Shown here in pieces: positions 11,712-60,505 of a stretch of 64,000 bases of DNA. The stretch is taken from NCBI GenBank assembly GCA_964016885.1, contig CAXHJY010000335.1, forward strand, positions 1 through 64,000. Reading direction: 5' to 3'. How positions within the stretch are numbered: position 1 is the first letter of the stretch; each line of letters opens with the position of its first letter. Under the pieces are notes generated by a model. It did not search any database. It saw only the letters and a list, made by a program, of their open reading frames with translations, and had not been told where the DNA came from. This stretch comes from Eledone cirrhosa. Its lineage: Eukaryota. Position numbers and translations under genes: made by a program.

Positions 11712-11853
11712 CTTTTCTTTGTCCTTTGGTGCGACAATCAGAATACTTTCTCCTGAGACATCAATACCAGCTCTACCAGCTCTTCCAATCATTTGTAAAT
11801 ATTGACATCTGCTGATGAACTTTTTACCAACATAGGGGCAGCGTAATATAACT
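11712..11853 (-). CDS. HELQ: HELQ coding exon 11 (helicase motif VI)
   Basis: tccag|(R)[28 protein letters not shown]|gtgttc; 142 nt, phase 2-0. Confidence 0.93.
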
Positions 11854-13160
11854 CTGGACAAATATGATATAAAATATGATTCATTTGAAAATACACAAAC
11901 TATTTGATACATAGGATGAGAGACAGACTGTCAGTTAGATAGATGGACAGGTTGATAGGTAGACAGGCTGATAGGTAGACAGGCTGATAGATAGACAGGC
12001 TGTTAGGTAGACAGGCTGATAAGTAGACAGGCTGTTAGGTAGACAGGCTGATAGGTAGACAGGCTGTTAGATAGACAGGCTGTTAGATAGACAGGCTGAT
12101 AGATAGACAGGCTGATAGGTAGACAGGCTGTTAGGTAGACAGGCTGATAGATAGACAGGCTGTTAGGTAGACAGGCTGATAGATAGACAGGCTGTTAGGT
12201 AGACAGGCTGTTAGATAGACAGGCTGATAGATAGACAGGCTGTTAGGTAGACAGGCTGATAGATAGACAGGCTGTTAGGTAGACAGGCTGTTAGGTAGAC
12301 AGGCTGATAGATAGACAGGCTGTTAGGTAGACAGGCTGATAGGTAGACAGGCTGTTAGGTAGACAGGCTGATAGATAGACAGGCTGTTAGGTAGACAGGC
12401 TGATAGGTAGACAGGTTGATAGGTAGACAGGCTGTTAGGTAGACAGGCTGATAGGTAGACAGGTTGATAGGTAGACAGGCTGTTAGGTAGACAGGCTGAT
12501 AGGTAGACAGGCTGATAGGTAGACAGGCTGTTAGGTAGACAGGCTGTTAGGTTGACAGGCTGATAGGTAGACAGGCTGATAGGTAGACAGGCTGATAGGT
12601 AGACAGGTTGATAGGTAGACAGGCTGTTAGGTAGACAGGCTGTTAGGTAGACAGGCTGTTAGGTAGACAGGCTGATAGGTAGACAGGTTGATAGGTAGAC
12701 AGGCTGATAGGTAGACAGGTTGATAGGTAGACAGGCTGTTAGGTAGACAGGCTGTTAGGTAGACAGGCTGTTAGGTAGACAGGCTGATAGGTAGACAGGC
12801 TGTTAGGTAGACAGGCTGATAGGTAGACAGGCTGTTAGGTAGACAGGCTGATAGATAGACAGGCTGTTAGGTAGACAGGTTGTTAGGTAGACAGGCTGAT
12901 AGATAGACAGGCTGTTAGGTAGACAGGTTGTTAGGTAGACAGGCTGATAGGTAGACAGGCTGTTAGGTAGACAGGCTGTTAGGTAGACAGGCTGATAGAT
13001 AGACAGGCTGTTAGGTAGACAGGTTGTTAGGTAGACAGGCTGTTAGGTAGACAGGCTGTTAGGTAGACAGGCTGTTAGGTAGACAGGCTGTTAGGTAGAC
13101 AGGTTGTTAGGTAGACAGGCTGATAGATAGACAGCCTGATAGATAGACAGGCTGATAGAT

Positions 13161-13716
13161 AGATTTCTTTATTAGCCACAAGGGCGCAACAAGAAAGGGG
13201 ACAATACAAAGACATGCCGGGGATTTTACATACAGTCATGTAAAAAATATAAAAACAAACAATTTCAACAATCGAAATCCCCAATAGGGGGGAGGCGCCA
13301 CAAATGGGTTGTTTAATACCCCGTCGATAGAACAACCCTCAACTCCAGGAGCGTGTTGTGCAAGTGCTCCTTTCTTCCTTTTGCTCTCTTCCTCAACCTA
13401 CAGGCTTATAAACAGAGAAGGCCCAATCACTCGGGCCATTTTCGCTTCATTCACCCACCTTTCAGTAAATTTACTGGGGTGCAGTGCCTCTCTCTCCACC
13501 CTGATTCTCCTTCTAAAGTGATACTTAAAGAAGGGAATCAATTGTTGTCCGGAGAGAAAGGCATCTGTCCTCAGTCCTCTCAACCTCGTCCACCATATAA
13601 CTTCTTTCACCATAGCCACCGTACAGAGGAAAACCGCCTCTCTTTCGTTTTTGAAAGAGTCTGGCGGTTTGATCCTTACTATGGACTCGGCAGTCAACTG
13701 TATTTGTCCCATACGC
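13161..13716 (-). mobile_element. Tx1/L1-clade LINE copy 1 (short 3' fragment, divergent subfamily)
   Basis: ORF 13398-13712 homologous to the ORF2 C-terminus of the other copies; 3' end AATAAAGAAAT abutting the minisatellite. Confidence 0.88.
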
Positions 13717-14404
13717 GACAGGCTGTTAGGTAGACAGGCTGATAGATAGACAGGCTGTTAGGTAGACAGGCTGATAGATAGACAGGCTGTTAGGTAGACA
13801 GGCTGTTAGGTAGACAGGCTGTTAGGTAGACAGGCTGTTAGGTAGACAGGCTGTTAGGTAGACAGGCTGTTAGGTAGACAGGCTGTTAGGTAGACAGGCT
13901 GATAGGTAGACAGGCTGTTAGATAGACAGGCTGTTAGGTAGACAGGCTGTTAGGTAGACAGGCTGTTAGGTAGACAGGCTGTTAGGTAGACAGGCTGTTA
14001 GGTAGACAGGCTGTTAGGTAGACAGGCTGTTAGATAGACAGGCTGTTAGGTAGACAGGCTGTTAGGTAGACAGGCTGTTAGGTAGACAGGCTGTTAGGTA
14101 GACAGGCTGTTAGGTAGACAGGCTGTTAGGTAGACAGGCTGTTAGGTAGACAGGCTGATAGATAGACAGGCTGATAGGTAGACAGGCTGATAGATAGACA
14201 GGCTGTTAGGTAGACAGGCTGTTAGGTAGACAGGCTGATAGGTAAACAGGCTGTTAGGTAGACAGGCTGTTAGGTAGACAGGCTGATAGATAGACAGGCT
14301 GTTAGGTAGACAGGCTGATAGGTAGACAGGCTGTTAGGTAGACAGGCTGTTAGGTAGACAGGCTGATAGATAGACAGGCTGTTAGGTAGACAGGCTGATA
14401 GATA

Positions 14405-17377
14405 AGTTTCTTTTATTTGCCACTAGGGCATCAAAAGTGGGACAAGTACAAAGGGGGGAGTTTACACAAAAAGGCGTCCTCAATAAGGAGGAGGCAATAA
14501 CAAAATATAAAAATAAAATAAGATATAACAAAATATAAAATTTTTAACAAAATCCTCAATAGAGAGGAGGCGCCTTGGGGGGTCGCACACACCCCCGAAA
14601 AAAAGTGTGCAACCCTTTTCCTCAGGAGCACAGAGAAGGGGTGCTCCCTCGTTCCTTCCTCTTTTCCACCTACAGGCTTATGTAAAGAGAAGGCCCATTC
14701 ACACGGGCCATTCTCGCCACTTTCACCCATCTTTCATAAAAACGACTGGGGTGCAGCACCTCTCTCTCCATCCTGATCCTTCTTCCGAAATGATATCGGA
14801 AGAAACGGACCAGTTGTTGGCCAGAGAGAAAGGTGCCTGACCTCAGTCCTTTCAGACGCGTCCACCATACAACCTCTTTCGCCATGGCTATTACGCACAG
14901 AAACACCGCCTCTGCTTCATCTTTGAAGGGGGGAGGCGGCTTGATCATTACAATAGACTCGGTGGTCAACCGGATCGGTCCCACCCTTGACAGCAGTTGT
15001 TCGACATAGCCCCACAGATCGGCTACGCCCGAGCAGTGTACCAATGCGTGTGCAACGGTTTCCTCGTCGCACACGCATCTGGGACAGATCTTTTTGGCGG
15101 GGTCCCTACCCGGGCGCCCGTGTCTGTAGAGCCTTTCTCGAACGGGTAAAGCCCCTCGGTAGCACTGCCAGGCCAGGGACTTCTGGAAGTTGTCCATAGG
15201 TCCCGGGCTGAATGTCCTACCGAACAGGCTGGCCAGTTCGTCCTCCTCCATGTCTAGGGCTTCTCCGAGGGCGTCGTCGCACCTGCTGCGTACCAGCCCT
15301 CTATAGAATGTTGCGGTGGAGTCTCCACTGATAACCGGATCCGCCTGCCAGAGGGCGGTGAGCGCCTGGGCACACTCAGTGTGCCAGGCGCCCAGTTTTC
15401 TCGGTCTTTGCTTGACCCAGGATTGCAGCTCGGTGAGTGAGATGAGTCTGGGAAAGGTTCGTCTCACAAACGAGGCCCACACCGGTTGTCCGGTGAGGAA
15501 TACGTAGAGGTGCCGTAGCCTTAATGCGTGTTTACGCATCATTAGCCACGGCATCCCCAGCCCTCCTTTCGAAGGGTGTTGACAGCAGATGGATCTCCTC
15601 ACCATAGGAGCCCGCCTCTTCCAAAGGAATTGGAAGAGCGTGCGCTCCATCTTGGTGAGGGTTTCCCTTGGGCAGGGCACTACGGTCAGGCGGTAGTAGA
15701 TGACGGACGCTATATAAGTGTTCGCCACCTCCGCCCGACCTTTCAGGGATAGTTTGCAACTGGCCCACTTCTGGGTCAGTGCAAACACCCTGTTCGTAAC
15801 CTCCGCCCAGTTTTTCTCCACCTGGAGGTCCGGTCCGAACCAGACCCCGAGCAACTTCACCGGGCCCTCCGTCCAGCGTCCGACGACGCCATCAGAGGGC
15901 ATCGGTCTGCCCCTCCACGTGCCGAGTTGCAAACCGATCGACTTGTCCCGGTTCAGCTTAGCCCCTGTGAACTTTTCGTACTCCTCCAGTAAGGTGCCGA
16001 CCGCCTCGATTTCGGAGGCCGTCAACACCATTACTGTCACATCATCGGCGTAGGCTGACACCGTTTTCCGCAATCCCGGTTCCAAAGGGATGCCCTGCAA
16101 CAACTCCAACTTCCGCAGTAGTGGCTCGAGAGTCAACACATACAGAAGGGAGGAGAGAGGGCACCCTTGTCGGATGGACCGCGCGATTTTGAACGGCTCC
16201 GAGAGGTAGCCATTCACCTTGACCCTAGAGCAGATGCGGCTGCTGTGCATAGCAGTGATCCAGCCCCTGAAAACGGGTCCGAAGCCTGCCGCCGCTAGCA
16301 CCGCATCCAGGTAACCATGGTCGACCCTATCGAACGCCTTAGATTGATCCAAGTTGATCAGAGCCCCACCAAAGCCGGGTTCGTTCCCAACCCTCTCTAT
16401 GATGTATCGCATGAGGTGGAGGTTGTCATGGATGGACCTGGACGGGATAGCGCATGTCTGCGCATCTCCCACCAGGTTGCCCACGACAAGCGCCAACCTC
16501 TTTGCTAGCACCTTGGCCAAAATCTGTAACTCTGTATTTAGCAGAGTTATGGGCCTGAAGTTACTTATTTCGTCCCCCTTGTTCTCGTCCTTCCTCACTA
16601 GCGTGACTACGCCCTTGGTCACAGTACAGGGAATTCTCCCGTTCTGTTGCCAGTTGCAGTAGACCGCCTCGAGGAGATCGGGGAACAAGTCCGGCATAGC
16701 TAGATATAATTCGTAAGGAAGACCATCGAGACCCGGGGATTTGCGTTTGCTGCATTGGCCCAGCACGTCCTCTATCTCAGCGGCCGAAATCGGCTCCTCG
16801 CAAGACTTCGCCTCCCTGTCCGAGAGGCGCGGCAGGCCGTCGAGGTATGGACCGAAGTCCACGTTTCCAACCGGCTCCCCGCCCCTCCCGAACAGTCGGG
16901 CAAAGTGCCTTTGAAAGGCCTCACACATCTGCTTAGGCTCAAGAATCGCCCGTCCATCCAGGTCTCGCAAAGACCGGATGGTGGATTTAGTTCCACTGTT
17001 GGCCTCTGTCACGCGGGCCCAGCTAACAGCTTTGGCCCCCTCGTTCCCTAGAGCACGTATTTTACTTCGGACAACGCAGCCTTCGTGCTTCGCGTCGAAA
17101 AACTGGCTCAAAGCCGTTCTCGACGCTAGCACTCTGGCCACGTCGCCGCTTCTAATTGCCTCTTCTACTCTATCTATTAGCTCCCTTTCCTTCCTATTCC
17201 TATCCGCAGCTAGAACCTTACTAAATTCAATCGAGACTACTCTAATCTCTCTCTTTAGAGATACCCACCACCTGCTGTTGACGATCGCTCCAGTCAACCG
17301 TTCCTTAACTAACGTACTAATCCGATTCCTGTAGGCTCTACTTGCCGGCAAGGACAAGTTGAGCTTCCAGTAACCGG
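14405..17377 (-). mobile_element. Tx1/L1-clade LINE copy 2 (5'-truncated, open RT ORF 14670-17357)
   Basis: RT motifs KSPGLDG, DQSKAFDRV, RQGCPLS, YADD; CCHC knuckle; GATAGATA on both sides. Confidence 0.93.
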
Positions 17378-17608
17378 ATAGATAGACAGGCTGTTAGGTA
17401 GACAGGCTGTTAGGTAGACAGGCTGTTAGGTAGACAGGCTGATAGGTAGACAGGCTGATAGATAGACAGGCTGATAGATAGACAGGCTGTTAGGTAGACA
17501 GGCTGATAGGTAGACAGGCTGTTAGGTAGACAGGCTGATAGGTAGACAGGCTGATAGGTAGACAGGCTGTTAGGTAGACAGGCTGTTAGGTAGACAGGCT
17601 GATAGATA

Positions 17609-20600
17609 TATTTCTTTTATTTGCCACTAGGGCATCAAAAGTGGGACAAGTACAAAGGGGGGAGTTTACATAACAAGGGGTCCTCAATAAGGAGGAGGCA
17701 ATAACAAAATATAAAAATAAAATAAGATATAACAAAAAATAAAATTTTTAACAAAATCCTCAATAGAGAGGAGGCGCCTTGGGGGGTCGCACACACCCCC
17801 GAAAAAAGTGTGCAACCCTACTCCTCAGGAGCACAGAGAAGGGGTGCTCCCTTGGTCTTTCATCTTCCTCACCTATAGTCTGATGTAGAGTGAAGGCCCA
17901 TTCACACGGGCCATTCTCGCCACTTTCACCCATCTTTCATAAAAACGGCTGGGGTGCAGCACCTCTCTCTCCATCCTGATCCTTCTTCCGAAATGATATC
18001 GGAAGAAACGGACCAGTTGTTGGCCAGAGAGAAAGGTGCCCGACCTCAGTCCTTTCAGACGCGTCCACCATACAACCTCTTTCGCCATGGCTATTACGCA
18101 CAGAAACACCGCCTCTGCTTCATCTTTGAAGGGGGGAGGCGGCTTGATCATTACAATAGACTCGGTGGTCAACCGGATCGGTCCCACCCTTGACAGCAGT
18201 TGTTCGACATAGCCCCACAGATCGGCTACGCCCGAGCAGTGTACCAATGCGTGTGCAACGGTTTCCTCGTCGCACACGCATCTGGGACAGATCTTTTTGG
18301 CGGGGTCCCTACCCGGGCGCCCGTGTCTGTAGAGCCTTTCTCGAACGGGTAAAGCCCCTCGGTAGCACTGCCAGGCCAGGGACTTCTGGAAGTTGTCCAT
18401 AGGTCCCGGGCTGAATGTCCTACCGAACAGGCTGGCCAGTTCGTCCTCCTCCATGTCTAGGGCTTCTCCGAGGGCGTCGTCGCACCTGCTGCGTACCAGC
18501 CCTCTATAGAATGTTGCGGTGGAGTCTCCACTGATAACCGGATCCGCCTGCCAGAGGGCGGTGAGCGCCTGGGCACACTCAGTGTGCCAGGCGCCCAGTT
18601 TTCTCGGTCTTTGCTTGACCCAGGATTGCAGCTCGGTGAGTGAGACGAGTCTGGGAAAGGTTCGTCTCACAAACGAGGCCCACACCGGTTGTCCGGTGAA
18701 GAATACGTAGAGGTGCCGTAGCCTTAATGCGTGTTTACGCATCATTAGCCACGGCATCCCCAGCCCTCCTTTCGAAGGGTGTTGACAGCAGATGGATCTC
18801 CTCACCATAGGAGCCCGCCTCTTCCAAAGGAATTGGAAGAGCGCGCGCTCCATCTTGGTGAGGGTTTCCCTTGGGCAGGGCACTACGGTCAGGCGGTAGT
18901 AGATGACGGACGCTATGTAGGTGTTCGCCACCTCCGCCCGACCTTTCAGGGATAGTTTGCAACTGGCCCACTTCTGGGTCAGTGCAAACACCCTGTTCGT
19001 AACCTCCGCCCAGTTTTTCTCCACCTGGAGGTCCGGTCCGAACCAGACCCCGAGCAACTTCACCGGGCCCTCCGTCCAGCGTCCGACGACGCCATCGGAG
19101 GGCATCGGTCTGCCCCTCCACGTGCCGAGTTGCAAACCGATCGACTTGTCCCGGTTCAGCTTAGCCCCTGTGAACTTTTCGTACTCCTCCAGTAAGGTGC
19201 CGACCGCCTCGATTTCGGAGGCCGTCGACACCATTATTGTCACGTCATCGGCGTAGGCCGACACCGCTTTCCGCAATCCCGGTTCCAAAGGGATGCCCTG
19301 CAACAACTCCAACTTCCGCAGTAGTGGCTCGAGAGTCAACACATACAGAAGGGAGGAGAGAGGGCACCCTTGTCGGATGGACCGCGCGATTTTGGACGGC
19401 TCCGAGAGGTAGCCGTTCACCTTGACCCTAGAGCAGATGCGGCTGCTGTGCATAGCAGTGATCCAGCCCCTGAAAACGGGTCCGAAGCCTGCCGCCGCTA
19501 GCACCGCATCCAGGTAACCATGGTCGACCCTATCGAACGCCTTAGATTGATCCAAGTTGATCAGAGCCCCACCAAAGCCGGGTTCGTTCCCAACCCTCTC
19601 TATGATGTATCGCATGAGGTGGAGGTTGTCATGGATGGACCTGGACGGGATAGCGCATGTCTGCGCATCTCCCACCAGGTTGCCCACGACAAGCGCCAAC
19701 CTCTTTGCTAGCACCTTGGCCAAAATCTGTAACTCTGTATTTAGCAGTGTTATGGGCCTGAAGTTACTTATTTCGTCCCCCTTGTTCTCGTCCTTCCTCA
19801 CTAGCGTGACTACGCCCTTGGTCACAGTACAGGGAATTCTCCCGTTCTGTTGCCAGTTGCAGTAGACCGCCTCGAGGAGATCGGGGAACAAGTCCGGCAT
19901 AGCTAGATATAATTCGTAAGGAAGACCATCGAGACCCGGGGATTTGCGTTTGCCGCATTGGCTCAGCACGTCCTCTATCTCAGCGGCCGAAATCGGCTCC
20001 TCGCAGGACTTCGCCTCCCTGTCCGAGAGGCGCGGCAGGCCGTCGAGGTATGGACCGAAGTCCACGTTCTTAACCGGCTCCCCGCCCCTCCCGAACAGTC
20101 GGGCAAAGTGCCTTTGAAAGGCCTCACACATCTGCTTAGGCTCAAGAATCGCCCGTCCATCCAGGTCTCGCAAAGACCGGATGGTGGATTTAGTTCCACT
20201 GTTGGCCTCTGTCACGCGGGCCCAGCTAACAGCTTTGGTCCCCTCGTTCCCTAGAGCACGTATTTTACTTCGGACAACGCAGCCTTCGTGCTTCGCGTCG
20301 AAAAACTGGCTCAAAGCCGTTCTCGACGCTAGCACTCTGGCCACGTCGCCGCTTCTAATTGCCTCTTCTACTCTATCTATTAGCTCCCTTTCCTTCCTAT
20401 TCCTATCCGCAGCTAGAACCTTACTAAATTCTATCGAGACTACTCTAATCTCTCTCTTTAGAGATACCCACCACCTGCTGTTGACGATCGCTCCAGTCAA
20501 CCGTTCCTTAACTAACGTACTAATCCGATTCCTGTAGGCTCTACTTGCCGGCAAGGACAAGTTGAGCTTCCAGTAACCGGGGCCCTGTCTATGAGTTCTG

Positions 20601-21505
20601 TCAAGGTTGACCATGCAGGTCACTAATTTGTGGTCTGAATAGCCAACAATGCGCATTTTTGGACAACTTAAAAAGTCCTTATCCTTAATTCTAACTAAGA
20701 ACCTATCTAGGTACGACCTAGATGATCCGCTACGATTTGCCCAAGTCCAGGTTGGCGCAGTCGGAAAATCTAGTCGATATCTATCGGCCAGGTCAAATCG
20801 ACCGATTAACCCTTTGAGGCTATTACACCCCTCTCTATCGGGGCAGGCCCCTACGTAGTCCCAGCGTGCATCTAGGATACCATTCCAGTCCCCCACTAAT
20901 AGCAAGGAGCGGGACGTCCCTAGAAAAGTCTCCAGACGATGGAAGAAGTCCGGCCGCATTGACCCGAAAGGGCCGTAGGCGGCTACCAACCTAAACGCTC
21001 CGCCTTTACCACTGCCAAGGTCCAGAACCACTAGTCGACCCTCCGGGTCCAAATGTACCATCTGTGTTGCGAGACCCAGATGTTTTTGCAGCAGAACGAC
21101 AACTCCACCCCCACCTCCGGGCTGACAGAGAGATGCGTGCATCTCAAAGTCATCAAAGGTGGGGGCCAGCTGTCGCACGTTGCTGATCTGGGCCTCGCAA
21201 ATAACCATCACATCTATACGTTGTGACCTGAGGTCATTTAGAAGCATTGCTTGCTTCCAAGTTGAGCCCAGGCCACGCGCATTTAAACAGCCTACTCTTA
21301 GCATAGCCATGTTGGTGGTGAAGAGAAAAGGCACTTACCTCTCTGCGTCCCGGGTATCGGGCTGCACAATTTCCATTAGGGTGGGGGATGGGTTGTTGGG
21401 TGGGGTGGTGGTTTGTGGAAGTGTGGGGGCATCAGTGTGTTGTGTGGTTGGGGAGCTTGGAGTTGTGTGGGTGTTTGGGGAGGGGGTGGGATAGTTTTTT
21501 AGGAG
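17609..21505 (-). mobile_element. Tx1/L1-clade LINE copy 3 (complete ORF2 plus ORF1 tail)
   Basis: Uninterrupted ORF2; Pro/Thr-rich ORF1 end ..QPDTRDAER*; AGGCTGATAGATA on both sides. Confidence 0.95.
17873..21310 (-). CDS. Tx1-like ORF2: APE endonuclease, reverse transcriptase, CCHC knuckle
   Basis: RVGCLNARGL, GDWN, SYLDRF, SDH (APE); YADD (RT); CPRC..ETVAHALVHC. First ATG at 21310; frame is open from 21334. Confidence 0.93.
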   Translation of the reverse strand: MAMLRVGCLNARGLGSTWKQAMLLNDLRSQRIDVMVICEAQISNVRQLAPTFDDFEMHASLCQPGGGGGVVVLLQKHLGLATQMVHLDPEGRLVVLDLGSGKGGAFRLVAAYGPFGSMRPDFFHRLETFLGTSRSLLLVGDWNGILDARWDYVGACPDREGCNSLKGLIGRFDLADRYRLDFPTAPTWTWANRSGSSRSYLDRFLVRIKDKDFLSCPKMRIVGYSDHKLVTCMVNLDRTHRQGPGYWKLNLSLPASRAYRNRISTLVKERLTGAIVNSRWWVSLKREIRVVSIEFSKVLAADRNRKERELIDRVEEAIRSGDVARVLASRTALSQFFDAKHEGCVVRSKIRALGNEGTKAVSWARVTEANSGTKSTIRSLRDLDGRAILEPKQMCEAFQRHFARLFGRGGEPVKNVDFGPYLDGLPRLSDREAKSCEEPISAAEIEDVLSQCGKRKSPGLDGLPYELYLAMPDLFPDLLEAVYCNWQQNGRIPCTVTKGVVTLVRKDENKGDEISNFRPITLLNTELQILAKVLAKRLALVVGNLVGDAQTCAIPSRSIHDNLHLMRYIIERVGNEPGFGGALINLDQSKAFDRVDHGYLDAVLAAAGFGPVFRGWITAMHSSRICSRVKVNGYLSEPSKIARSIRQGCPLSSLLYVLTLEPLLRKLELLQGIPLEPGLRKAVSAYADDVTIMVSTASEIEAVGTLLEEYEKFTGAKLNRDKSIGLQLGTWRGRPMPSDGVVGRWTEGPVKLLGVWFGPDLQVEKNWAEVTNRVFALTQKWASCKLSLKGRAEVANTYIASVIYYRLTVVPCPRETLTKMERALFQFLWKRRAPMVRRSICCQHPSKGGLGMPWLMMRKHALRLRHLYVFFTGQPVWASFVRRTFPRLVSLTELQSWVKQRPRKLGAWHTECAQALTALWQADPVISGDSTATFYRGLVRSRCDDALGEALDMEEDELASLFGRTFSPGPMDNFQKSLAWQCYRGALPVRERLYRHGRPGRDPAKKICPRCVCDEETVAHALVHCSGVADLWGYVEQLLSRVGPIRLTTESIVMIKPPPPFKDEAEAVFLCVIAMAKEVVWWTRLKGLRSGTFLSGQQLVRFFRYHFGRRIRMEREVLHPSRFYERWVKVARMARVNGPSLYIRL

Positions 21506-22318
21506 AGGCTGATAGATAGACAGGCTGATAGATAGACAGGCTGTTAGGTAGACAGGCTGTTAGGTAGACAGGCTGATAGGTAGACAGGCTGATAGGTAGA
21601 CAGGCTGATAGGTAGACAGGCTGATAGGTAGACAGGCTGATAGATAGACAGGCTGTTAGGTAGACAGGTTGTTAGGTAGACAGGCTGATAGGTAGACAGG
21701 CTGTTAGGTAGACAGGCTGTTAGGTAGACAGGCTGTTAGGTAGACAGGCTGATAGATAGACAGGCTGTTAGGTAGACAGGTTGTTAGGTAGACAGGCTGA
21801 TAGGTAGACAGGCTGTTAGATAGACAGGCTGATAGGTAGACAGGCTGTTAGGTAGACAGGCTGTTAGGTAGACAGGCTGTTAGGTAGACAGGTTGTTAGG
21901 TAGACAGGCTGATAGATAGACAGGCTGTTAGGTAGACAGGCTGTTAGGTAGACAGGCTGTTAGGTAGACAGGCTGTTAGGTAGACAGGCTGTTAGGTAGA
22001 CAGGCTGTTAGGTAGACAGGCTGATAGGTAGACAGGCTGATAGATAGACAGCCTGTTAGGTAGACAGGCTGATAGATAGACAGGCTGTTAGGTAGACAGG
22101 CTGTTAGGTAGACAGGCTGTTAGGTAGACAGGCTGTTAGGTAGACAGGCTGATAGGTAGACAGGCTGTTAGGTCGACAGGCTGTTAGGTAGACAGGCTGT
22201 TAGGTAGACAGGCTGTTAGGTAGACAGGCTGTTAGGTAGACAGGCTGTTAGGTAGACAGGCTGTTAGGTAGACAGGCTGTTAGGTAGACAGGCTGATAGG
22301 TAGACAGGCTGATAGATA

Positions 22319-25300
22319 ATTTTCTTTTTATTTGCCACTAGGGCATCAAAAGTGGGACAAGTACAAAGGGGGGAGTTTACATAACAAGGGGTCCTCAATA
22401 TGGAGGAGGCAATAACAAAATATAAAAATAAAATAAAATATAACAAGATAAAATTTATAACAAAATCCTCAATAGAGAGGAAGCGCCTTGGGGGGTCGCA
22501 CACACTCCCGAAAAAAAGTGTGCAACCCTTCTCCTCAGGAGCACAGAGAAGGGGTGCTCCCTTGGTCTTTCATCTTCCTCACCTATAGTCTGATGTAGAG
22601 TGAAGGCCCATTCACACTGGCCATTCTCGCCACTTTCACCCATCTTTCATAAAAACGGCTGGGGTGCAGCACCTCTCTCTCCATCCTGATCTTTCTTCCA
22701 AAATGATATCGGAAGAAACGGACCAGTTGTTGGCCAGAGAGGAAGGTGTCTGACCTCAGTCCTTTCAGAAGCGTCCACCATACAACCTCTTTCGCCATGG
22801 CTATTACGCACAGAAACACCGCCTTTCCTTCGTTTTTGAAGAGGGGAGGCGGCTTGATCGTTACAATAGACTCGGTGGTCAACTGGATCGGTCCCACCCT
22901 TGACAGCAGTTGTTCGACATAGCCCCACAGATCGGCAATGCCCGAGCAGTGTACCAATGCGTGTGCAATGGTTTCCTCGTCGCACACGCATCTGGGACAG
23001 ATCTTTTTCGAGGGGTCCCTACCTGGGCGCCCGTGTCTGTAGAGCTTTTCTCGAACGGGCAGAGCCCTTCTGTAGCACTGCCAGGCCAGGGACCTCTGGA
23101 AGTTATCCATGGGTCCCGGGCTGAATGTCCTACCGAACAGGTTGGCCAGTTCATCTTCCTCCATGCCTAGGGCTTCTCCGAGGGCGTCGTCGCACCTGCT
23201 AACTACCAGCCCTCTATAGAATGACGAGGTGGATTCTCCACTAACAGCCGGGTCCGCCTGCCAGAGAGCAGTGAGCGCCTGGGCACACTCAGTGTGCCAG
23301 GCGCCCAGTTTTCTCGGTCTTTGCGTGACCCAGGATTGCAGCTCGGTGAGTGAGACGAGTCTGGGAAAGGCTCGCCTCACAAACGGGGCCCACACCGGTT
23401 GACCGGAGAGGAATACCTGGAGGTACCGTAGCCTTAATGCGTGTTTACGTATCATTAGCCACGGCATCCCCAGCCCTCCTTTCGAAGGGTGTTGACAGCA
23501 GATGGATCTCCTCACCATAGGAGCCCGCTTCTTCCAAAGGAATTGGAAGAGTGCGCGCTCCATTTTGGCGAGCGTTTCCCTTGGGCAAAGCACAACGGTC
23601 AGGCGGTAGTAGATGACGGGCGCTATATAAGTGTTTTCCACCTCCGCCCGACCTTTCAGGGACAGTTTGCACTCGGCCCACTTCTGGGTCAGTGCAAACA
23701 CCCTGTTCGTTACCTCACCTCAGTTCTTCTCCACCTGGAGGTCTGGTCCGAACCAGACTCCGAGCAACTTCACCGGGCCCTCCGTCCAGCGCCCGACGAC
23801 GCCATCGGAGGGCATCGATCTGCCCCTCCACGTGCCGAGTTGCAGACCGATCGACTTGTCCTGGTTCAGCTTAGCCCCTGTAAACCTTTTGTACTCCTCC
23901 AGTAAGGTGCCGATGCTCCCGATTTCCGAGGCCGTCGACACCATTAGTGTTACGTCATTGGCGTAGGCCGACACCGCTTTCCGCAATCTCGGTTCCAACA
24001 GGATGCCCTGCAACAACTCCAACTTCCGCAGCAGTGGCTCTAGAGTCATTACATACAGAAGGGAGGAGAGAGGGCACCCCTGTTGGATGGACCGCGCGAT
24101 TTCGAACGGCTCCGAGAGGTAGCCGTTGTCCTTGACCCTAGAGCAGATGCGGCTGCTGTGCATGGCATTGATCCAGCCCCTGAAAACGGGTCCGAAGCCT
24201 GCCGCCGTTAGCACCGCATCCAGGTAACCATGGTCGACCCTATCGAACGCCTTAGATTGATCCAAGTTGATCAGGGCCCCACCAAAGCCGGGTTTGTTCC
24301 CAACCCTCTCTATGATGTATCGCATGAGGTGGAGGTTGTCGTGGATGGACCTGGACGGGATAGCACATGTGTGCGCATCTCCCACCAGGTTGCCCATGAC
24401 AAGCACCAACCTCTTTGCTAGCACCTTGGCCAAAATCTGTAACTCTGTATTTAGCAGAGTTATGGGCCTGAAATTATTTATATCGTCCCTCTTGTTCTCG
24501 TCCTTCCTCACTAGCGTGACTACGCCCTTGGTCACAGCACAGGGAATTCTCCCGTTCTGTTGCCATTTGCAGTAGACCGCCTTGAGGAGATCGGGGAACA
24601 AGTCCGGCATAGCTAGATATAGTTCGTATGGAAGACCATCGAGACCCGGGGATTTGCGTTTGCCGCATTGGCTCAGCACATCCTCTATCTCCGCGGCTGA
24701 AATTGGCTCCTCGCAGGACTTCGCCTCCCTGTCCGAGAGACGCGGCAGGCCGTCGAGGTATGGACCGAAGTCCACATCCCCAACCGGCTCCCCGCCCTTT
24801 CCGAACAATCGGGCAAAGTGCTTTTGAAAGGCCTCACACATCTGCTTAGGTTCAAGGATCGCCCGTCCATCCTGGTCTCGCAAAGATGGTGGATTTAGTT
24901 CCACTCTTGGCTCTGTCACGCGGGCCCAGCTAAGAGCTTTGGTCCCCTCGTTTCCCAGAGCACGTATTTTGCTTCGGATGATGCAGCCTTCGTGTTTCGT
25001 GTCGAAGAACTGGCCCAGGGCCGTTCTCGACGCTAGCACTCTGGCCACGTCGCCGCTTCTAATTGCCTCTTCTACACTATCTACCAACTCCCTTTCCTTC
25101 TCATTTCTAGTTGAGGCTAACTCCTTACTAAATTCTATAGAGACTACTCTAATCTCTCTTTTGAGAGATCCCCACCACCTGCTGTTGACGATGGCGCCCG
25201 TCAACCGCTCCTTAACTAAAGTGCTAATCCGGTCCCTGTAAGCCTTACTTGCCGGTAAGGACAAGTTGAGCTTCCAGTAACCGGGTCCCCGTCTATGTGT

Positions 25301-26201
25301 TCTGTCAAGGTTGACCATGCAGGTCACTAACTTGTGGTCTGAATAGCCAACCATGCGCATTTTTGGACAACTTAAAAAGTCCTTATCCTTAATTCTAACT
25401 AAGAACCTATCTAGGTACGACCTAGATGATCCGCTACGATTTGCCCAAGTCCAGGTTGGCACAGTCGGAAAATCTAGTCGATATCTATCGGCCAGGTCAA
25501 ATCGATCGATTAACCCTTTGAGGCTATTACACCCCTCTCTATCGGGACAGGCCCCTACGTAGTCCCAGCGTGCATCTAGGATACCATTCCAGTCCCCCAC
25601 TAATAGCAAGGAGCGGGACGTCCCTAGAAAAGTCTCCAGACGATGGAAGAAGTCCGGCCGCTTTGACCCGAAAGGGCCGTAGACGGCTACCAACCTAAAC
25701 GCTCCGCCTTCACCACTGCCAAGGTCCAGAACCACTAGTTGACCCTCCGGGTCCAAATGTACCATCTGTGTTGCGAGACCCAGATGTTTTTGCAGCAGAA
25801 CGACAACCTCACCCCCACCTCCGGGCTGACAGAGAGATGCGTGCATCTCAAAGTCATCAAAGGTGGGGGCCAGCTGTCGCATGTTGTTGATCCGGGCCTT
25901 GCAAATAACCATCACATCTATACATTGTGACCTGAGGTCATTTAGAAGCATTGCTTGCTTCCAAGTTGAGCCCAGGCCACGTGCATTTAAACAGCCTACT
26001 CTTAGCATTGCCATGTTGGTGGTGAAGAGAAAAGGCACTTACCTCTCTGCGTCCTGGGTATCGGGCTGCACAATTTCCATGAGGGTGGGAGATGGGTTGT
26101 TGGGTGGGGATGACTTGGGTGGGGGTGCCTGTGGTGGGGAGGCCTTTGTAGAGGACGCGGTTGATTGGTTTCACGCAGGAATTCCCCACGTCCTCTACAA
26201 A
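22319..26201 (-). mobile_element. Tx1/L1-clade LINE copy 4 (decayed)
   Basis: Same ORF2 but with a stop at ~23720, YADD changed to YAND, and a compensated frameshift near 24890. Confidence 0.92.
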
Positions 26202-26582
26202 TATATACAGAATATATTTGCTATGTGTATACCAGTTATTAGAATAAGTACACTTTCTCTGCATGTCATGAGAATTGACTAAAAGGGTTGGCACCAGGAA
26301 GGGCATTGGGCTGTAAAACATTGTCTCAATTCCATGTTAGCATGGAAAGGAAGACGTAAAAATGATTATGATGATGATATAAATCCATAATTTACAAAGA
26401 AATTAAAAAAAATTCTCTAACTACTATCATTTCAAATAATACAGAAGTGAGGTGTGATCTATAGCCCATCTGGGAGGTCTGTAGCTCTAATTAAGAACAG
26501 ACTTAGTCTATGACAACCTGTCCAACCCATGCCAGCATGGAAAAATGCATATTAAATGATAATGATGATGTTGAAAACAAAC

Positions 26583-26822
26583 CTTTTAGCAGGAAGATTG
26601 ACACCGGCAGCTAGGGTTGAAGTACAAGCTAATAAGCACAGAGTACCATCTGAGTATGCATCTTCTATCAGCCTCCGTTCATCACTAGTAAGCCCACTGT
26701 GGTGATAGGCAAGGCCAAAAGGAACCGTTTGTGCTAAAACAGAGCACAAATGTCCATTGTTATCAGCTTTCAGATCTTTCAGAAGTTGTTTTTTATGAGA
26801 TCTGTGAATATCCAGTAAATTC
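26583..26822 (-). CDS. HELQ: HELQ coding exon 10 (motifs IVa and V)
   Basis: [33 protein letters not shown]; 240 nt, phase 2-2. Confidence 0.95.
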
Positions 26823-27764
26823 CTGCAAAATATAAATATGGTCAACCCTTCTGATTAGAAAACTGCCTGAAAACACCTCTGATTTTATGAGACAAAATTA
26901 TCCATTTTAATGAGTTCATATTTATATTAAAACCTTCCATAATAATTCTATGTAAGAACTTTTTGTCAAGTAATGCTCCAAACATCAGCTTAATAATAAG
27001 AAAGTTAGTTATGTTACTAAATGTCTTAAAATTCTTGATTATTTCCAAAATATCTTGAAAAACATAGGCAGTGTTTTTCATAAGAAATATGGTAATGAAA
27101 GGATTATGGTTAAGAAAGAAAAGGTGCATTAGATGAATTTAACTCTTAACATTCTGCAATAATTTAGAAGATAATACTAAAAAAAATATGGACAGATAGT
27201 TTTGAACATTTGTAGCAAGAGAGTAAAAGAGTAAAAGAATTGCTGAATCAGCAATTCTGTGCTTAAACTTTAATCTGTTCTTATAATAAATATATATATA
27301 TATATATCAAGGGAAAAGGGAATATGATATATATATATATATATATATTCCACCTTCTCTTTTCATTTCTTCTTGGCTAATCAATATGTTGGGCCTCATC
27401 TATATCTCTTCTTTTCAGTTACAGTACATTGGTTTCTAACATATTTTATCTTATTTGTAAATAGTCAAAAGATCAATTGTCTTTCTTGTGTCCATTTGTT
27501 ACTGTCCCATGTGTGTACACTGGAGCCAGTTGTAATGATCTTAAAGCACTGAAATAACATATCTCCATTGATCAACTGATGAAAGGGGACTGCCTTTGTT
27601 TCGTTCATTTTTCTGTTGTCTTTGCCCATATTTTTATTTATAAATATAATCCTCATCACCGTTTAAAGTCCATTTTTCCATGCTAGCATGGGTTAGATGA
27701 GCTGTCCCATTGTGAGTCAAGCCAGGTCAGATGACCGTGTCTTTCTCATGCAGAACTGATTATA

Positions 27765-29921
27765 TCATCATCCTCACCGTTTTACGTCCGTTCTTCCACG
27801 CTAGCATGGGTTAGACGGGTTGTTCTGTTGTGGGCAGTGTCCAGTCTTGCTCATATGGGAACTGATTCTGGCTTGATTTCTACAGCTGGATGCCCTTCCT
27901 AACACCAACCTCATTTACAGTGAGTGCTGGGTGCTTTTTTCCGTGGCGCCTCGGGTCTTCTGTATTACTGCGTGACGCCAGAGGTCACAGTCGTGTGTCA
28001 TCGCCTTTGAGTAAGGTTGGCTTTTATCACCTCATCCCAGGTCTTCTTAGGTCTCTCCACTCCACGGTTTCTATCGACTTCTAGTGCTCTGCATCTTTTT
28101 ATGCAGTTGTCATCCTTCATACACATCACATGTCCATACCAACGCAACCTCCTCTCCTGCACACAGCATTTGATTCCTCTTATGCTCAGTCTCTCTCTCA
28201 ATTCGTTTATGCGTTTCTGTTCGAGTATATTACTATTACACATCCATCAGAGCATGCAGGCTTCGTTTCTTTCTAATCTACGCAAGTCTTCTACAGACAG
28301 CGCCCAGGTCTCACTACCATGTAACATTGCTGTTTGTATACACGCATCATACAGTCTGCTCTTCATTTTGAGAGGAAAAGCCTTTTGCAGCTAGCAGTGG
28401 CTCCCTGAACTTCTTCCATCCCGTTCTTACCCTAGTTATTGTACTTTCCGAACACCCACCTCTGCTGCTAATTCTGTCACCTAGGTAGCAGAAGCTGTCT
28501 ACTGTTCCTACAGAGCCCTCCCAGAGTTTGGTCATGCTTGTTTCCTGTGGCTGTTTGCTGCTTGCTGTCCCAGTGCAGCTGCTACAGGTGAAGCCTACAT
28601 TCTTAGTTAAGCTTCCCGAGATCCCACTACATCTCTTGTGTACCCATTGTTTGCATTTGGGGCAGAGGATGGAGTTCCTACCTACACCTTTCCTACATTC
28701 TGAGCAAGGCCATTTCCCTGAGGGGATCTGGGTTCTGTTTTCTCCTCTACTTACAAGGACCTTAGTCTTTGTAAGGTAGACTTTGAGACCCCTTTTTTCT
28801 AGTCCCTGCTTCCATGTTTAGAATTTCTTCTCTAGTTCTACCATAGATTCAGCTATAAGTGCGAGGTCATCTGCATACAGGAGTTCCCACGGGCATCCGG
28901 TCTTAAACTCATCCGTTATTGCCTGCAAAACTATGATGAACAGGAGAGGGCTAAGAACAGAGCCCTGGTGGACACCGACCTGCATGCTAAATTCATCGCT
29001 ATAGTCATTGCTAATCCTAACTTTGCTGACTGCTCCCCTATACATGGCTTGTACAACTTTCACAAGCCATTCATTTACCCCTAGTTTCCTAAGAGCCCAC
29101 CAGATTATGGCACGGGGAACTCTGTCAAAGGCTTTCTCCATATCGACGAATGTCAGGTAGAGTGGCTTACTTTTAGCTAGGTACTTTTCCTGTAACTGCC
29201 TCACAAGGAAGGAAGAAGGCATCAGTGTTGCCTTTTCCTGGCACAAACCCAAATTGCATCTCATCTAGTTTCACCCAGTCCCTAATCAACTGTGCTATAA
29301 CTCTTTCTGTTACTTTCATGACCTGGTCCATCAGCTTTATACCTCTATAGTTTCTTCTATCTAGTTGTAGCAGTTGACAATGAAGCTGCTGCACCAATCC
29401 TTTGGTATGACACCTTCTAGTATTACCTGGTTAACAATACGTGTGGTTATGGTGTGACCTACCGACCCAGATGCCTTCAGCATCTCGGCAGCTATACCCG
29501 ATGGACCGGTTGCCTTCCCCGTCTTCATATCTTTGATTGCCTTACTTACTACTCTGCTGCTGACTTGTATTGCTGGCCCCTCTATAGGGTCTACTTGGGG
29601 TAGAGTCTCTTTCTCCCAGGCATTCTCCTCATTTAGTAATCTTTCATAATAGCTCTTCCACACATCTTTCTTCTCAGCACTTGTGAGTGCAAGCTCACCT
29701 TTATCATTCCGGATACACTTCTCTCCAATGACATCACAATTCTCTCTGACACACTGCCTCACAATCTTGAACATCTCCTGTTTCTGGTCCTCACGTTGCA
29801 AGACATGCTTCAATTTTCTATCCGCCGCTTCCCTTCTAGCTAAGTATACTTGTCACCTAGCTTCCCTCCTGGTCTCTATGTAACGTACCCTGCTTCCCCC
29901 GTTCTTCCATTCTTTCCATGC

Positions 29922-42346: not shown

Positions 42347-44539
42347 AATTCCATATATGGTCAAAGTGATTGTCAAAAATCAGTAGTAATTCTGTGGTTG
42401 CAAATTAGTAGGGGAGATGGTGGCTAAACCTGCCAGTAGGAGAAAGAGGGGAGGGGGTGGAGTAGACCCAATCAAGCGTTGGTAGTGCCAGCTACAGCTG
42501 GGCATGAGGTCAAAGAAGATACAGGGGAGGGGGAGGGGGAGGAAGTCGGAACGGTAGGTAGAACAATGGGGGGTAGAAATAAAGGAAAGAAAAAATACTG
42601 AGAGTGAAGAAAAGCAAATAAGTGTAAAGAAAAAAGTAAAGTAAATTAAATTCTACGACCTAGGTGTCAGGCTATTGTTAGGCGAGAATAAAATAAAGAA
42701 AGAAAGAAAGAAGTAAAGAAAAAAATAAATAAAGAAATAACGAAATAAGTAAAAGAACTAGGTGGGACGGAATAGGCAAGGACCCTTTTAAGAGGTATAA
42801 GTACGTAAATGATACGGTGACGGGTCAACAAAAGGGGCCAAAATACTAAAGAGACTACCACGAAATAAACAATAAAGGTTCCCATCCCGGGCCAGCAACG
42901 ACCCAGTGCAGCAAAGTGAACTTGTACAAGATAATAATTCTGAGTCCCGAGAAAAATATATACTAATGCTAACTCTAAAAGATCTAAAACAAGCTACAAG
43001 AAAGTTCGTACGAAAAAAAGGTAGAATACGGAGAAATAAATTCAGAATCCACCCCGCCCAGAAGAAAAGCGAAGCAAGAAATACTGAAACGAAAGATAAG
43101 GCATAAGTGCCACTAAGAAATATAGAGGGCACAGAGAATAGTGGGAGCGGTTGGAAAAAGGGGGCAAGTATCCGGGGTCTAAGCCAACTGCTATAAAGGG
43201 CGGAGTCCGCCAAATCTATCATAGACTAGGGGAGGGGGTGGTGGGGGTACTAAGGCTACATGGGGCCAAAGGGCAGCCTCGGGTGGGCGAGAAAAGACGC
43301 CGACAAAGGAGAAGAGCTGGGGTAGAAGGACTAAGGAGAGAGGGGGGGGGGAAGGAAATAAAGGAAGCGATAAAAGAATACAAAGAAGATCTTACGTCTT
43401 CCTTGGCAAGCAGGGGTTACCCATTGCAAAATCGGCAAGTGGGGTGTTATAGCCCTAGTCTACCCCCCCGGGTCATTATGGGGTTTGAGGGCGAGGTAAG
43501 TCCTACGCAATCTATGTTTACATGCAGTAACCAGTTCATCTTTCTTGTTTAGGAGTTGGTCCGTCGGAAACAGCATTTGTAAAGTTTCCTCCGAGCATAA
43601 ATTGCACGGACGGCGTCCTCCCATGTAAGAATTGGCTCTGAACAGTAATCTCCAAGTGAGATCATAGGTGATGTTGTTGTCCTTGAGGTCCCATATGTGG
43701 CCCGAAAGTGTAGTGGCGTGACGCCGGGCCGGGTTTCGGAAGGTATGTCTATGTTGGTATAGCCGGGTCTTGAAGTCACATGCGGTAAGTCTTGAAGGCG
43801 TGACGCCGGGCCGGGTTTCGGAAGGTATGTCTATGTTGGTATAGCCGGGTCTTGAAGTCACATGCGGTAAGTTCGTACAAACTTTCTTGTAGCTTGTTTT
43901 AGATCTTTTAGAGTTAGCATTAGTATATATTTTTCTCGGGACTCAGAATTATTATCTTGTACAAGTTCACTTTGCTGCACTGGGTCGTTGCTGGCCCGGG
44001 ATGGGAACCTTTATTGTTTATTTCGTGGTAGTCTCTTTAGTATTTTGGCCCCTTTTGTTGACCCGTCACCGTATCATTTACGTACTTATACCTCTTAAAA
44101 GGGTCCTTGCCTATTCCGTCCCACCTAGTTCTTTTACTTATTTCGTTATTTCTTTATTTATTTTTTTCTTTACTTCTTTCTTTCTTTCTTTATTTTATTC
44201 TAGCCTAACAATAGCCTGAGACCTAGGTCGTAGAATTTAATTTACTTTACTTTTTTCTTTACACTTATTTGCTTTTCTTCACTCTCAGTATTTTTTCTTT
44301 CCTTTATTTCTACCCCCCATTGTTCTACCTACCGTTCCGACTTCCTCCCCCTCCCCCTCCCCTGTATCTTCTTTGACCTCATGCCCAGCTGTAGCTGGCA
44401 CTACCAACGCTTGATTGGGTCTACTCCACCCCCTCCCCTCTTTCTCCTACTGGCAGGTTTAGCCACCATCTCCCCTACTAATTTGCAACCACAGAATTAC
44501 TACTGATTTTTGACAATCACTTTGACCATATATGGAATT

Positions 44540-56994: not shown

Positions 56995-59900
56995 TGATAG
57001 CTGCCCCCTTGTTATCTAGTATGGCCATTGCACGAGAAAAAACCCCATAATAATAACAACAATAATAATAATAACAACAATAATAACAACAACAACAACA
57101 ATAATAATATACATATATATATATACTCACATGCACATACATAAACATATCTACACACACATGATAGCAATTAACAGCGCTGCGATCGAATGTGGTCTTT
57201 TAGCCCAGCCAATGATCTAAAATGTCTTGCACAGAGTTGGCAGCCAAAATATTCACTGGGAATAGCCGGCTGTGGTTGGAGTTCATGTACTTTTGCATGT
57301 CGCTTGAGCCCTCCTGCTGGTTTACATTCTCTACCACATGCTTGGCAAGCATGATGAGTAGCATCTCCAACAGCAGCCTGGTAGTCAACCACTGGTCTTA
57401 CTTTATGACTGCGAAGATGACTTTCGAGTCCAGCTTTGCTTAGGCAGAGTCTCGCACAGACGCTGCATGTCAGCACCATAGGAGGACCCTCGCCGTCTGG
57501 AAGTACAACAGCAATGCCCTTCCTCACATCCCGCTTTACTTTCTCGTATGCGATTCGAGATGCCTCAAAGGCAACTTTCCCCTCATACACAGTCTTTCTC
57601 CATTTATTACGATCAGCAGCAACATTTTCCCATGTATCAGCAGAGATGTTAGCGTCTTTCAAAGAGGTTTTCAAGGAATCCTTATACCTCTTTTTTGGTT
57701 TATGTGGCGGTCGTTCTCCTTTAACTAACTCTCCATAAAGAGTTGTTTGGGTATTCTAGAATCCTTCATCCTGGCAAGGTGACCACTCCAACGGAGTCGT
57801 TGCTTAAGCACAAGAGCTTCTATACTGTCACACAGAGAGTTTTCCAAAATCTCGACATCACTGATGTGGTCCCTCCAGCGAACGCCATGGATCCGTCTGA
57901 GACACATCTGATAGAAACGCTCCAATTGCTTAAGGTGGTGTCGATATGTGACCCAAATCTCACAGGCATAAAGAAGAGAAGAGAGCACACATGCTTTGTA
58001 CACCTTTACTTTTGTCGTCTTGCATATGTCTCGCCGACCCCAGAGTCGCCTTTCTAGCTTTCCGAAAGCATCACTTGCTTTCCTAATCCTGAGTGGGATT
58101 TCATTATCAAGGTTGCTGTATCGATTGACAGTGCTTCCCAGGTAGACAAACTGATCAACCACTCCAAGTCGTTTACCATACACATAGATATTTGGTTCAC
58201 TGTACTGCTTACCAGGGGCAGGTTGGTACATGACGACAGTTTTCTTGAGGCTGACAGTCAATCATAGGGCAGTGCAAGCATCAGAAAATGCATTCAAAAT
58301 GTGCTGCATATCACTCTCTGTGTGCGCTACAAGATCGCAATCATCTGCATACAAGAGGTCTCTTATGATTGATGTAAATACTTTTGTTTTTGCAGCAAAG
58401 CGCCTGATGTTAAATATGCTGCCTTAGGTTTGATATCGGATGTAAACACCATGATCGCAATTCCTGAATGCAATATAGTAAACCATTGCAAAGTATATGG
58501 CAAACAGGGTCGGTGCTGGAATATCCCCCTGTTTCACTCCATTTTTTATAGAGATAGGCTCTGACATGTTACCTCCGACATTAACCCAAGCCTTCATGTC
58601 GTCATGGAAAGACCTAACTAAAGCAAGGAACTTATCAGGGCAACCAAGTTTCTGGAGAACCTTCCATAATGCATTTCTGTAACAGTATAGAAAGCTTTTG
58701 TCAGATCGACAAAAACCTGATACAGATCCAAACCTTGTTCCATGCACTTCTCCTGGAGCTGTCTAGCTGAGAAGATCATATCAGTAGTGTCGCGTCCAGC
58801 ACGAAAACCAGATTGACTTTCAGGAAGAACACAATCTGCAATGTGTGTCAGCAGACGGTCCAGAAGCACCCTACATAAAACTTTCCCCACGACAGAAAGC
58901 AATGATATACCTCTGTAGTTCCCACAATCATTCCTGTTACCCTTTCCCTTGTACAAGACCACCATTACTGCATCTCTCCAGTCCTCAGGTACGGATTCAT
59001 TAGCCCATATCCTGCCAAACAAAGAGTGAAGATGCTGCAGAAGTCTCTCACCACCATATTGTAGGAGCTCTGCATATATGCCATCCATACATGGAGACCT
59101 TCCACTGTTCAGCTTCGAGATAACCACTGCAACCTCCACAAGCGTCGAAGGTTCTGCGAGAGATACTTTCACAGAACTTTCTGGAATGAGATTGTGGAAG
59201 TCTTCATTGACGACAGACGGCTGATTCAAAAGCTCATGAAAGTGCTCTCGCCACCTTCGTAGAATTCCTTGTGATGCACGAAGAAGTTCTTTGCCATCCT
59301 TGCTGCGAAGCGGTATCACAAGAGAAGAAGACGGTCCATAAACCTCACGCAAGAGACTGTACAACAGCTTTGTGTTATTGGAATCTGACGCAGTTTGTAT
59401 CTCATCAGCCTTCTCACTCCACCACTGATCCTTCATCTGAGAAAGACTCCGCCTAACACGTGATTTCACATCCTTGAGTTCCTTATGCAACATATTCTTC
59501 TTCTGTGGTTTTGCCATCAAGTAGCGTGACAGAGCACGCCTCTTATCAGCCAACAAGTCTTCTATATGTTCATCATTCTCATTGAACTAGTCTTGATGTT
59601 TTCTCTGCACCAATCCCAGAACACGCCTGCCTACATCATAAACCAACTTTTTAAGGGTCGGCCAATCCTCACCAAGATCTGCAACATGCATCTCTTCTCG
59701 CAATCTCCTCTTTACATTTTTATCCCTAAGACGAGCAGCATTCAATCTTCTGGGCAGGGCAACACCAGGAGCCCGGATTTTACGTTTAGTGATTAGTTTC
59801 ACTTTTGCGTGTACCAGGCGGTGGTCCGTCCAGCACTCAGCTCCACGAAGAGCACGAACACACTGCACATCCCGTCTGTTACGCATCCTGACTACGACGT

Positions 59901-60450: not shown

Positions 60451-60505
60451 TGATTTATGTATGTATTTATGTATGTATTTACAATTAAATACATACATGC
60501 CTACA

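Follow-up and report, generated by a model that had tools for sequence, protein, structure and literature searches.

Long interspersed nuclear elements (LINEs) that encode an apurinic/apyrimidinic endonuclease (APE) include target-specific families, which fall in the Tx1 and R1 clades (PMC4640811). The teleost Tx1-clade families Kibi and Koshi occupy (TC)n and (TTC)n, and crocodilian Tx1 families occupy (TTCC)n/(TTTC)n (PMC4494074, PMC3812793); Waldo (ACAY) and Mino (AC), of the R1 clade, also have short tandem-repeat targets (PMC3812793). The microsatellite targets named so far are ACAY, AC, TC, TTC and TAA (PMC3812793), TTCC/TTTC (PMC4494074, which calls a family specific when over 20% of its flanks fall in a single repeat type) and TG (PMC4640811). 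Octopods carry L1-Tx1 repeats, with 13 recently active families and 421 insertions in Octopus vulgaris (PMC13282606). The passages at hand report these without target specificity (PMC13282606, PMC8967140), the word "target" being absent from the main text of the former, and the excerpted account of Tx1 in gastropods does not mention GATA (PMC11203168). Here we analyse a 64,000-nucleotide stretch of Eledone cirrhosa contig CAXHJY010000335.1 (the window), in which four co-oriented, 5'-truncated copies of a LINE with APE and reverse transcriptase (RT) domains, 558, 2970, 3895 and 3882 bp long, interrupt a single-locus 16-bp minisatellite within an intron of the repair gene HELQ. We conclude that these are very probably independent copies of a young L1-group family, that they sit at GATAGATA units because those units contain TC|TATCTATC, the sequence at which the family inserts throughout the genome, and that a nick made by the element's own endonuclease likely placed them there.

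Like Kibi, Koshi and the crocodilian Tx1 families, this is an L1-group APE-type LINE that inserts specifically in a microsatellite; unlike them, it targets (TATC)n/(GATA)n and tolerates (TA)n and isolated TATCTAT. With Waldo and Mino it shares an APE-type machinery and a short tandem-repeat target, a tetranucleotide in the case of Waldo, but the repeat is a different one and its second open reading frame (ORF2) product best matches L1 ORF2p (E 1.7e-47). It resembles mammalian L1 in an ORF2 with endonuclease, RT and zinc finger, in 5' truncation, in duplications of about 15 bp and in 5' microhomology, and departs from it in having no poly(A), an ORF1 with a CCHC knuckle instead of Transposase_22, and a strict TATCT junction in place of a weak TTAAAA preference. 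The L1-Tx1 repeats annotated in octopuses belong to the same class, show the same recent octopod activity, and probably include relatives of the GATA-targeting family. A literature search found no GATA- or TATC-targeting LINE; Repbase, which was not searched, may already hold such a family. The (GATA)n target of this microsatellite-specific APE LINE thus appears to be unreported, adding to the repeats targeted by such elements a case with a very high copy number, apparently still active, in an octopod host.

A genome-wide (TATC)n/(GATA)n target

The initial annotation had proposed a GATA-repeat-targeting family on the strength of the window alone, and the genomic copies bear this out. Each window copy ends, as had been noted, in AATAAA(A/AA)GAAA with no poly(A), to which we add two subfamily-specific terminal bases (NN; TC, CT, TA and AT for copies 1 to 4, in element orientation). 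When genomic copies were collected and their 3' flanks tabulated, the flanks were not random: in one subfamily group, 2953 of 3475 exact 27-bp 3' ends (85%) continue into NN-TATCT, and 11,594 ends of a sister group, whose total was not counted, continue into NN-TATCTAT, giving at least 14,500 target-joined 3' ends genome-wide. For a closer view we used a positional sample of 60 regions with 63 copies, taken from the first 64 listed sites on contig C1 minus two within locus L044. The seven bases after NN are TATCTAT in 48 of these copies, TATATAT in 8 and another sequence in 7, and 23 of the 63 (37%) run on into at least three perfect TATC units; both this share and the 85% above exceed one fifth of flanks in one repeat type. 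The family therefore targets (TATC)n/(GATA)n repeats.

Duplications place the site to the base. Of the 63 positional copies, 29 have an exact duplication of at least 8 bp that begins directly behind NN, as do 28 of 42 best-hit copies, a set that excludes the window copies and two edge cases. The 30 duplications that are not pure TATC or TA repeat measure 8-21 bp (median 15, microhomology included), and by hand count TC stands immediately before 18 of them. The dinucleotide NN tracks the subfamily and not the site (CA in 39, TA in 12, CT in 11 and TC in 1 of the 63 copies); NN thus belongs to the element, whose end is AAAGAAA-NN, and TC|TATCTAT is the site. Sites such as L258 and L266 retain TATATAT on both sides of the insertion, so the motif belongs to the target and is no tail added by the element. 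An independent replicate comes from C1, in a minisatellite of 32-bp units (L331/L351): L331 has 26 TGTCTATA, 6 TATCTATA and 2 TCTCTATA units, and the duplication lies with both its copies on TATCTATA, a minority unit. The cut site is thus defined by the many near-identical copies whose duplications are clean, and minisatellites that mix matching and non-matching units act as natural specificity assays. In octopods, markers based on GATA microsatellites may have mobile copies within or beside them.

Six loci (L071, L083, L014, L028, L254, L338) hold insertions at the same TATC-like spot within other dispersed repeats. Because the downstream sequence is shared among unrelated loci with insertions, some other repeat families appear to carry a target site.

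Four insertions in the HELQ-intron minisatellite

The minisatellite lies on the plus strand in four blocks: A1 (11925..13161, about 76 units, with a degenerate GACA/GATA lead-in at 11925-11945 and GATAGATA as its last unit), A2 (13717..14404, 43 units), A3 (17377..17608, 14 units) and A4 (21506..22318, 50 units). Among 179 interior units, 95 are CAGGCTGTTAGGTAGA, 33 are CAGGCTGATAGGTAGA and 27 carry GATAGATA, the remainder being rarer variants, and the unit patterns differ among the blocks. The 16-bp unit can be read as four degenerate GATA tetramers, with a perfect target match only in the GATAGATAGA variant; TCTATCTATC is contained perfectly in the minority unit and with two mismatches in the dominant one. 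A 25-bp array pattern has 87 exact matches in the 3.0-Gb assembly, all inside this window, and the 16-bp unit occurs in 0 of 331 other loci. The unit is thereby ruled out as the family's target or tail: the minisatellite is not what the family targets, and its minority unit is an incidental 10-bp mimic of (TATC)n/(GATA)n.

All four copies lie on the minus strand and differ in their 5' truncation. The short copy 1 (13162..13721) is a 3' fragment of a sister subfamily. Copy 2 (14405..17376) is truncated just past the endonuclease domain and has an open frame to the ORF2 stop. Copy 3 (17609..21505), truncated in the end of ORF1, retains an uninterrupted ORF2 of 1145 amino acids (17873..21310, minus strand) with APE endonuclease, RT (YADD) and a weakly matching C-terminal zf-RVT. 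Copy 4 (22319..26202) is older; a stop near 23720 breaks its ORF2, YAND replaces YADD, and its ORF1 end is divergent. The sequence CAGGCTGATAGATA precedes all four 3' ends, ending at 13161 (given as 13160 in the initial annotation), 14404, 17608 and 22318, so that the earlier claim that every 3' end abuts the minority GATAGATA unit holds for four of four copies against 27 of 179 interior units. By chance this would happen with a probability of about 8e-4 at a 17% share of the minority unit, or 0.03 counting only copies 2 and 3, the two window copies whose duplication proves the target.

The bracketing duplications described for copies 2 and 3 are present as stated. Copy 2 is bracketed by GATAGATA, a 7-8-bp duplication (14397-14404 and 17377-17384), and copy 3 by AGGCTGATAGATA, a 13-bp duplication (17596-17608 and 21506-21518). 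Copy 1 had been described as joined through microhomology with no duplication. The 5-bp CTGTC microhomology at 13717-13721 is there, but the absence of a duplication is only one of two readings, as the junction also fits, in exact register, a 16-bp duplication with two mismatches, whose 5' copy is a GTTAGGTA-type unit. Three histories could account for this junction: the copy inserted without duplicating its target, the RNA templated a correction, or units turned over afterwards. Copy 4, which starts at 26202, lacks a duplication at its 5' junction, and the array does not resume beyond it.

As proposed earlier, the insertions are independent and involve at least two subfamilies. Copy 1 is 76% identical to copies 2-4 and 99.5% identical to distant genomic copies. 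Among the loci compared, the best partner of every copy is a distant one, at 99.5%, 99.5%, 99.7% and 96.6% for copies 1 to 4, and copies 2 and 3 match each other at 98.5%. We regard the four as separate events on this comparison, because their 3' dinucleotides and truncation points all differ and because copy 2 is closer to a distant copy than to copy 3.

Target choice and competing explanations

In the reading we favour, the endonuclease would nick the plus strand of the window at 5'-GATAGATA^GA-3', as target-primed reverse transcription would imply, and the nicked 3' end would prime reverse transcription on the RNA just past NN. Since the element has no poly(A), a TATCTAT read-through at the 3' end of the RNA would probably pair with this primer. 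A second-strand cut would follow at a distance of about 15 bp, and 2-5 bp of microhomology would serve to join the truncated 5' end. The target would be kept on both sides of each insertion and later copies could stack in the same orientation; because insertion leaves targets on both sides, co-oriented stacks would form without array expansion.

Several observations weigh against this reading. Endonuclease specificity and RNA pairing would look the same from sequence alone. No NN-TATCT match follows 522 of the 3475 ends, and 34 of the 63 sampled copies gave no duplication, internal deletions having misplaced the 5' junction in many cases and many others being older copies whose 5' junction was not reached; the duplication search was moreover constrained to start at the offset right after NN. 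In the window a GATAGATA target is proven for copies 2 and 3 only: the 5' unit of copy 1 is GTTAGGTA-type, copy 4 has no duplication, and the GATAGATA at their 3' ends could have been written from RNA. RNA-templated correction of the target is also possible at L269, where the two apparent copies of the duplication differ at two bases and the 3' one is nearer to TATCTATC.

These points lead to the alternative that nicking is loose within TA-rich simple repeats and that the site is set mainly by pairing of the nicked strand with a TATCTATC read-through tail of the RNA, mismatched targets being overwritable. The dinucleotide that precedes the duplication goes with the subfamily, in the proportions given above, so that the RNA fixes the priming register; TATATAT serves as the site in 8 of 63 cases, and L269 and window copy 1 both look like duplications in which the 3' copy is nearer to TATCTATC than the 5' copy. 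Against this, no more than 6 of 108 junctions show an imperfect duplication, and 5 of these lie in low-complexity repeats, so that target overwriting is rare or unproven; the L258 and L266 targets keep TATAT uncorrected; no pairing region extends to the TC that precedes the cut (18 of 30); and in known Tx1 and R1 families it is reportedly the endonuclease that mainly determines the target (PMC4494074). We therefore hold RNA-set targeting to be rather improbable. The clean copies and natural assays described above make the contrast between endonuclease recognition and RNA pairing directly testable. A different view, close to that of the initial annotation, makes the minisatellite a special, expanding landing pad that renews its targets and is hit more than ordinary GATA repeats. 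Four insertions in 2.9 kb with about 30 perfect TCTATCTATC sites would fit it, as would the differing ages of the insertions (copy 4 at 96.6%, the others at 99.3-99.7% to distant copies), and the mismatched in-register unit at copy 1 could reflect unit turnover after insertion. Yet at least three copies within about 7 kb were found in 5 of 60 sampled loci, mostly with no such array, nine other scanned loci include 12- to 52-bp arrays beside the insertion, and no allele or empty site shows array expansion, which leaves the landing pad unlikely in our estimation.

The wider sample bears directly on how typical this locus is. The first 100 listed ends form 99 neighbouring pairs, of which 11 are less than 10 kb apart, each of these with both members on the same strand, against a random expectation of 1.0 (5000 draws, maximum 6). 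More than one family 3' end occurs in 19 of the 60 sampled regions, all co-oriented, and at least three in 5 of them. Arrays of 12- to 52-bp period lie beside the insertion at nine loci that were picked by eye and scanned for tandem repeats, and L279 and L280 are two insertions in one 28-bp array. The HELQ intron is thus a typical example and the claim of a special site does not stand. The genome-wide count of target sites covers one flanking class only (21,242) and was not used for enrichment, so that an excess of insertions per site in the window is not shown.

Two further explanations concern the locus itself. Local tandem duplication of an element-plus-array block, or mis-assembly, could be suspected from the common orientation of the copies, the 98.5% identity of copies 2 and 3, and a small, unplaced contig whose junction is not bridged by the short-read contigs listed. 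We consider this highly unlikely, given that truncation points, duplication lengths and terminal dinucleotides all differ, that each copy is nearer to distant genomic copies than to its neighbours, that the four array blocks differ in unit pattern, and that the HELQ exon region matches only once. That the array might be the element's own 3' tail, copied at each insertion, would account for an array block after every copy and for none beyond the 5' end of copy 4. The initial annotation had named an array belonging to the element's transcript as a result that would overturn its claim; with 87 of 87 pattern matches inside the window, the unit in none of the 331 other loci, and duplications of copies 2 and 3 that consist of array sequence, it carries a negligible probability, barring source copies absent from the assembly.

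More tentatively, the family may breed its own targets: full-length RNAs would start in an upstream GATA repeat and carry TATC units to new sites, colonising and multiplying GATA microsatellites in octopods, with RNA-DNA pairing guiding both ends. We regard this as possible but doubtful. Of 30 full-length 5' ends, 19 are directly preceded by TATC, and at L351 (G000:C1:295833490-295839910), which lies in a minisatellite that lacks TATC units, about five of these separate the element start from a clean 16-bp duplication. Most TATC 5' flanks are equally well explained by pre-existing repeats and slippage. At L351, L281 and L334, the stretch from the duplication to the start of a full-length copy holds surplus TATC units or a few other bases, possibly 5' carry-over from the donor site.

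The LINE family and its host gene

Full-length copies measure about 5.72 kb from a fixed start and encode an ORF1 of 592-598 and an ORF2 of 1145 amino acids. A 29-mer at the 5' end occurs exactly 360 times; among 20 regions fetched from 5' ends, 18 reach the 3' end, 10 have the whole ORF2 open and 5 have both ORFs open, and the last 175 residues as query gave at least 150 matches at 100% identity. Judged by these near-identical and open copies, the family is young and probably active. The fixed 3' end, variable 5' truncation and target-site duplications are signs of target-primed insertion. Pfam profiles in ORF2 are Exo_endo_phos, RVT_1 and zf-RVT, the last below the curated cut-off. Its best PDB match is human L1 ORF2p (residues 8-862, E 1.7e-47), with R2 at 5e-19, and the endonuclease domain alone gave no informative match in the PDB. 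By this comparison we place the family in the L1 group of non-long-terminal-repeat retrotransposons, with APE, RT and a C-terminal zinc finger and with L1 ORF2p as the closest solved structure. Identity with Kibi or Koshi was rejected, the junctions being TATCTAT or TATATAT and not (TC)n/(TTC)n, as was membership of the R1 clade (Waldo, Mino), where the target differs and the ORF2 match is to L1 ORF2p.

ORF1 has one CX2CX4HX4C motif at residues 323-339 (zf-CCHC, E 0.051, below cut-off), and a profile search of it found no Transposase_22; its atlas neighbours at 0.92 carry zf-CCHC, with weak support for an RRM. A Type I ORF1 with RRM and CCHC knuckle is a Tx1 trait, as opposed to Transposase_22 (PMC5203782), and the ORF1 found here is consistent with the Tx1 type. 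In a quick RT tree of 43 rows, which lacks named Tx1 and vertebrate L1 and from which P0037 was dropped for short overlap, the family groups with Argonauta and unnamed proteins (SH-like approximate likelihood ratio test 99), apart from plant L1s. The motif DQxKAFDRVDH, which we take to be Tx1-like, was not counted as evidence. Relatives were found in Argonauta (62%, the only named one) and among unnamed proteins (about 40%); 80 metagenome loci are only 24-43% identical, and no TATC run lies downstream of ORF2 in the 24 checked. Copy 4 (window 26110-26202), L044, L042 and L291 join an ORF2 94-97% similar to that of the young family to an ORF1 only about 68% similar, and several genomic copies are mosaics along ORF2, a pattern that points to recombination between subfamilies or to an exchange of ORF1 among them.

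As initially annotated, the copies lie in HELQ. The minus-strand exons flanking the intron lie at 11712..11853 (downstream, helicase motif QMIGRAGR) and 26583..26823 (upstream, best match helicase POLQ-like), and 17 collinear exon-level matches run across the window on the same strand, the exon best match being Octopus bimaculoides helicase POLQ-like at 88% identity. The GT-AG intron (11854..26582, minus strand, 14,729 bp) contains the LINE copies in sense orientation to the gene. It is indeed mostly filled, as had been stated, but by the LINE copies (about 11.3 kb) and not by the array (about 2.9 kb). A single-copy repair gene thus carries 11 kb of sense-oriented LINE and four AATAAA signals in one intron.

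The HELQ exon region has one match only in the assembly, and the apparently single gene lies on a small contig (G000:C362) outside the chromosome-scale contigs. Repeats dominate the short-read contigs of four runs over 26110-27250, and none of the listed pieces bridges 26202. A 5.5-kb contig of run X4, a run not recorded as RNA, matches 26583-26823 exactly and fits a spliced HELQ transcript. Other repeats are scattered through the window. A decayed RT-bearing LINE fragment lies in another HELQ intron (28001-29852), and the minus strand at 57174-60454 holds a decayed APE-RT LINE of another kind, split over several frames, with C-terminal C2H2-like zinc fingers and motifs that we presume to be RTE-like. 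A short frame at 43463-43942 ends in CNLC...HR, which we take to resemble the GIY-YIG end of Penelope-like elements, and an 82-bp perfect duplication lies at 43715-43872. Near the window end, (ATTAT)n and (ACTAC)n pentamer arrays occupy 62676-63983, and TTAGGG-like units occur on the minus strand near 62400-62480.

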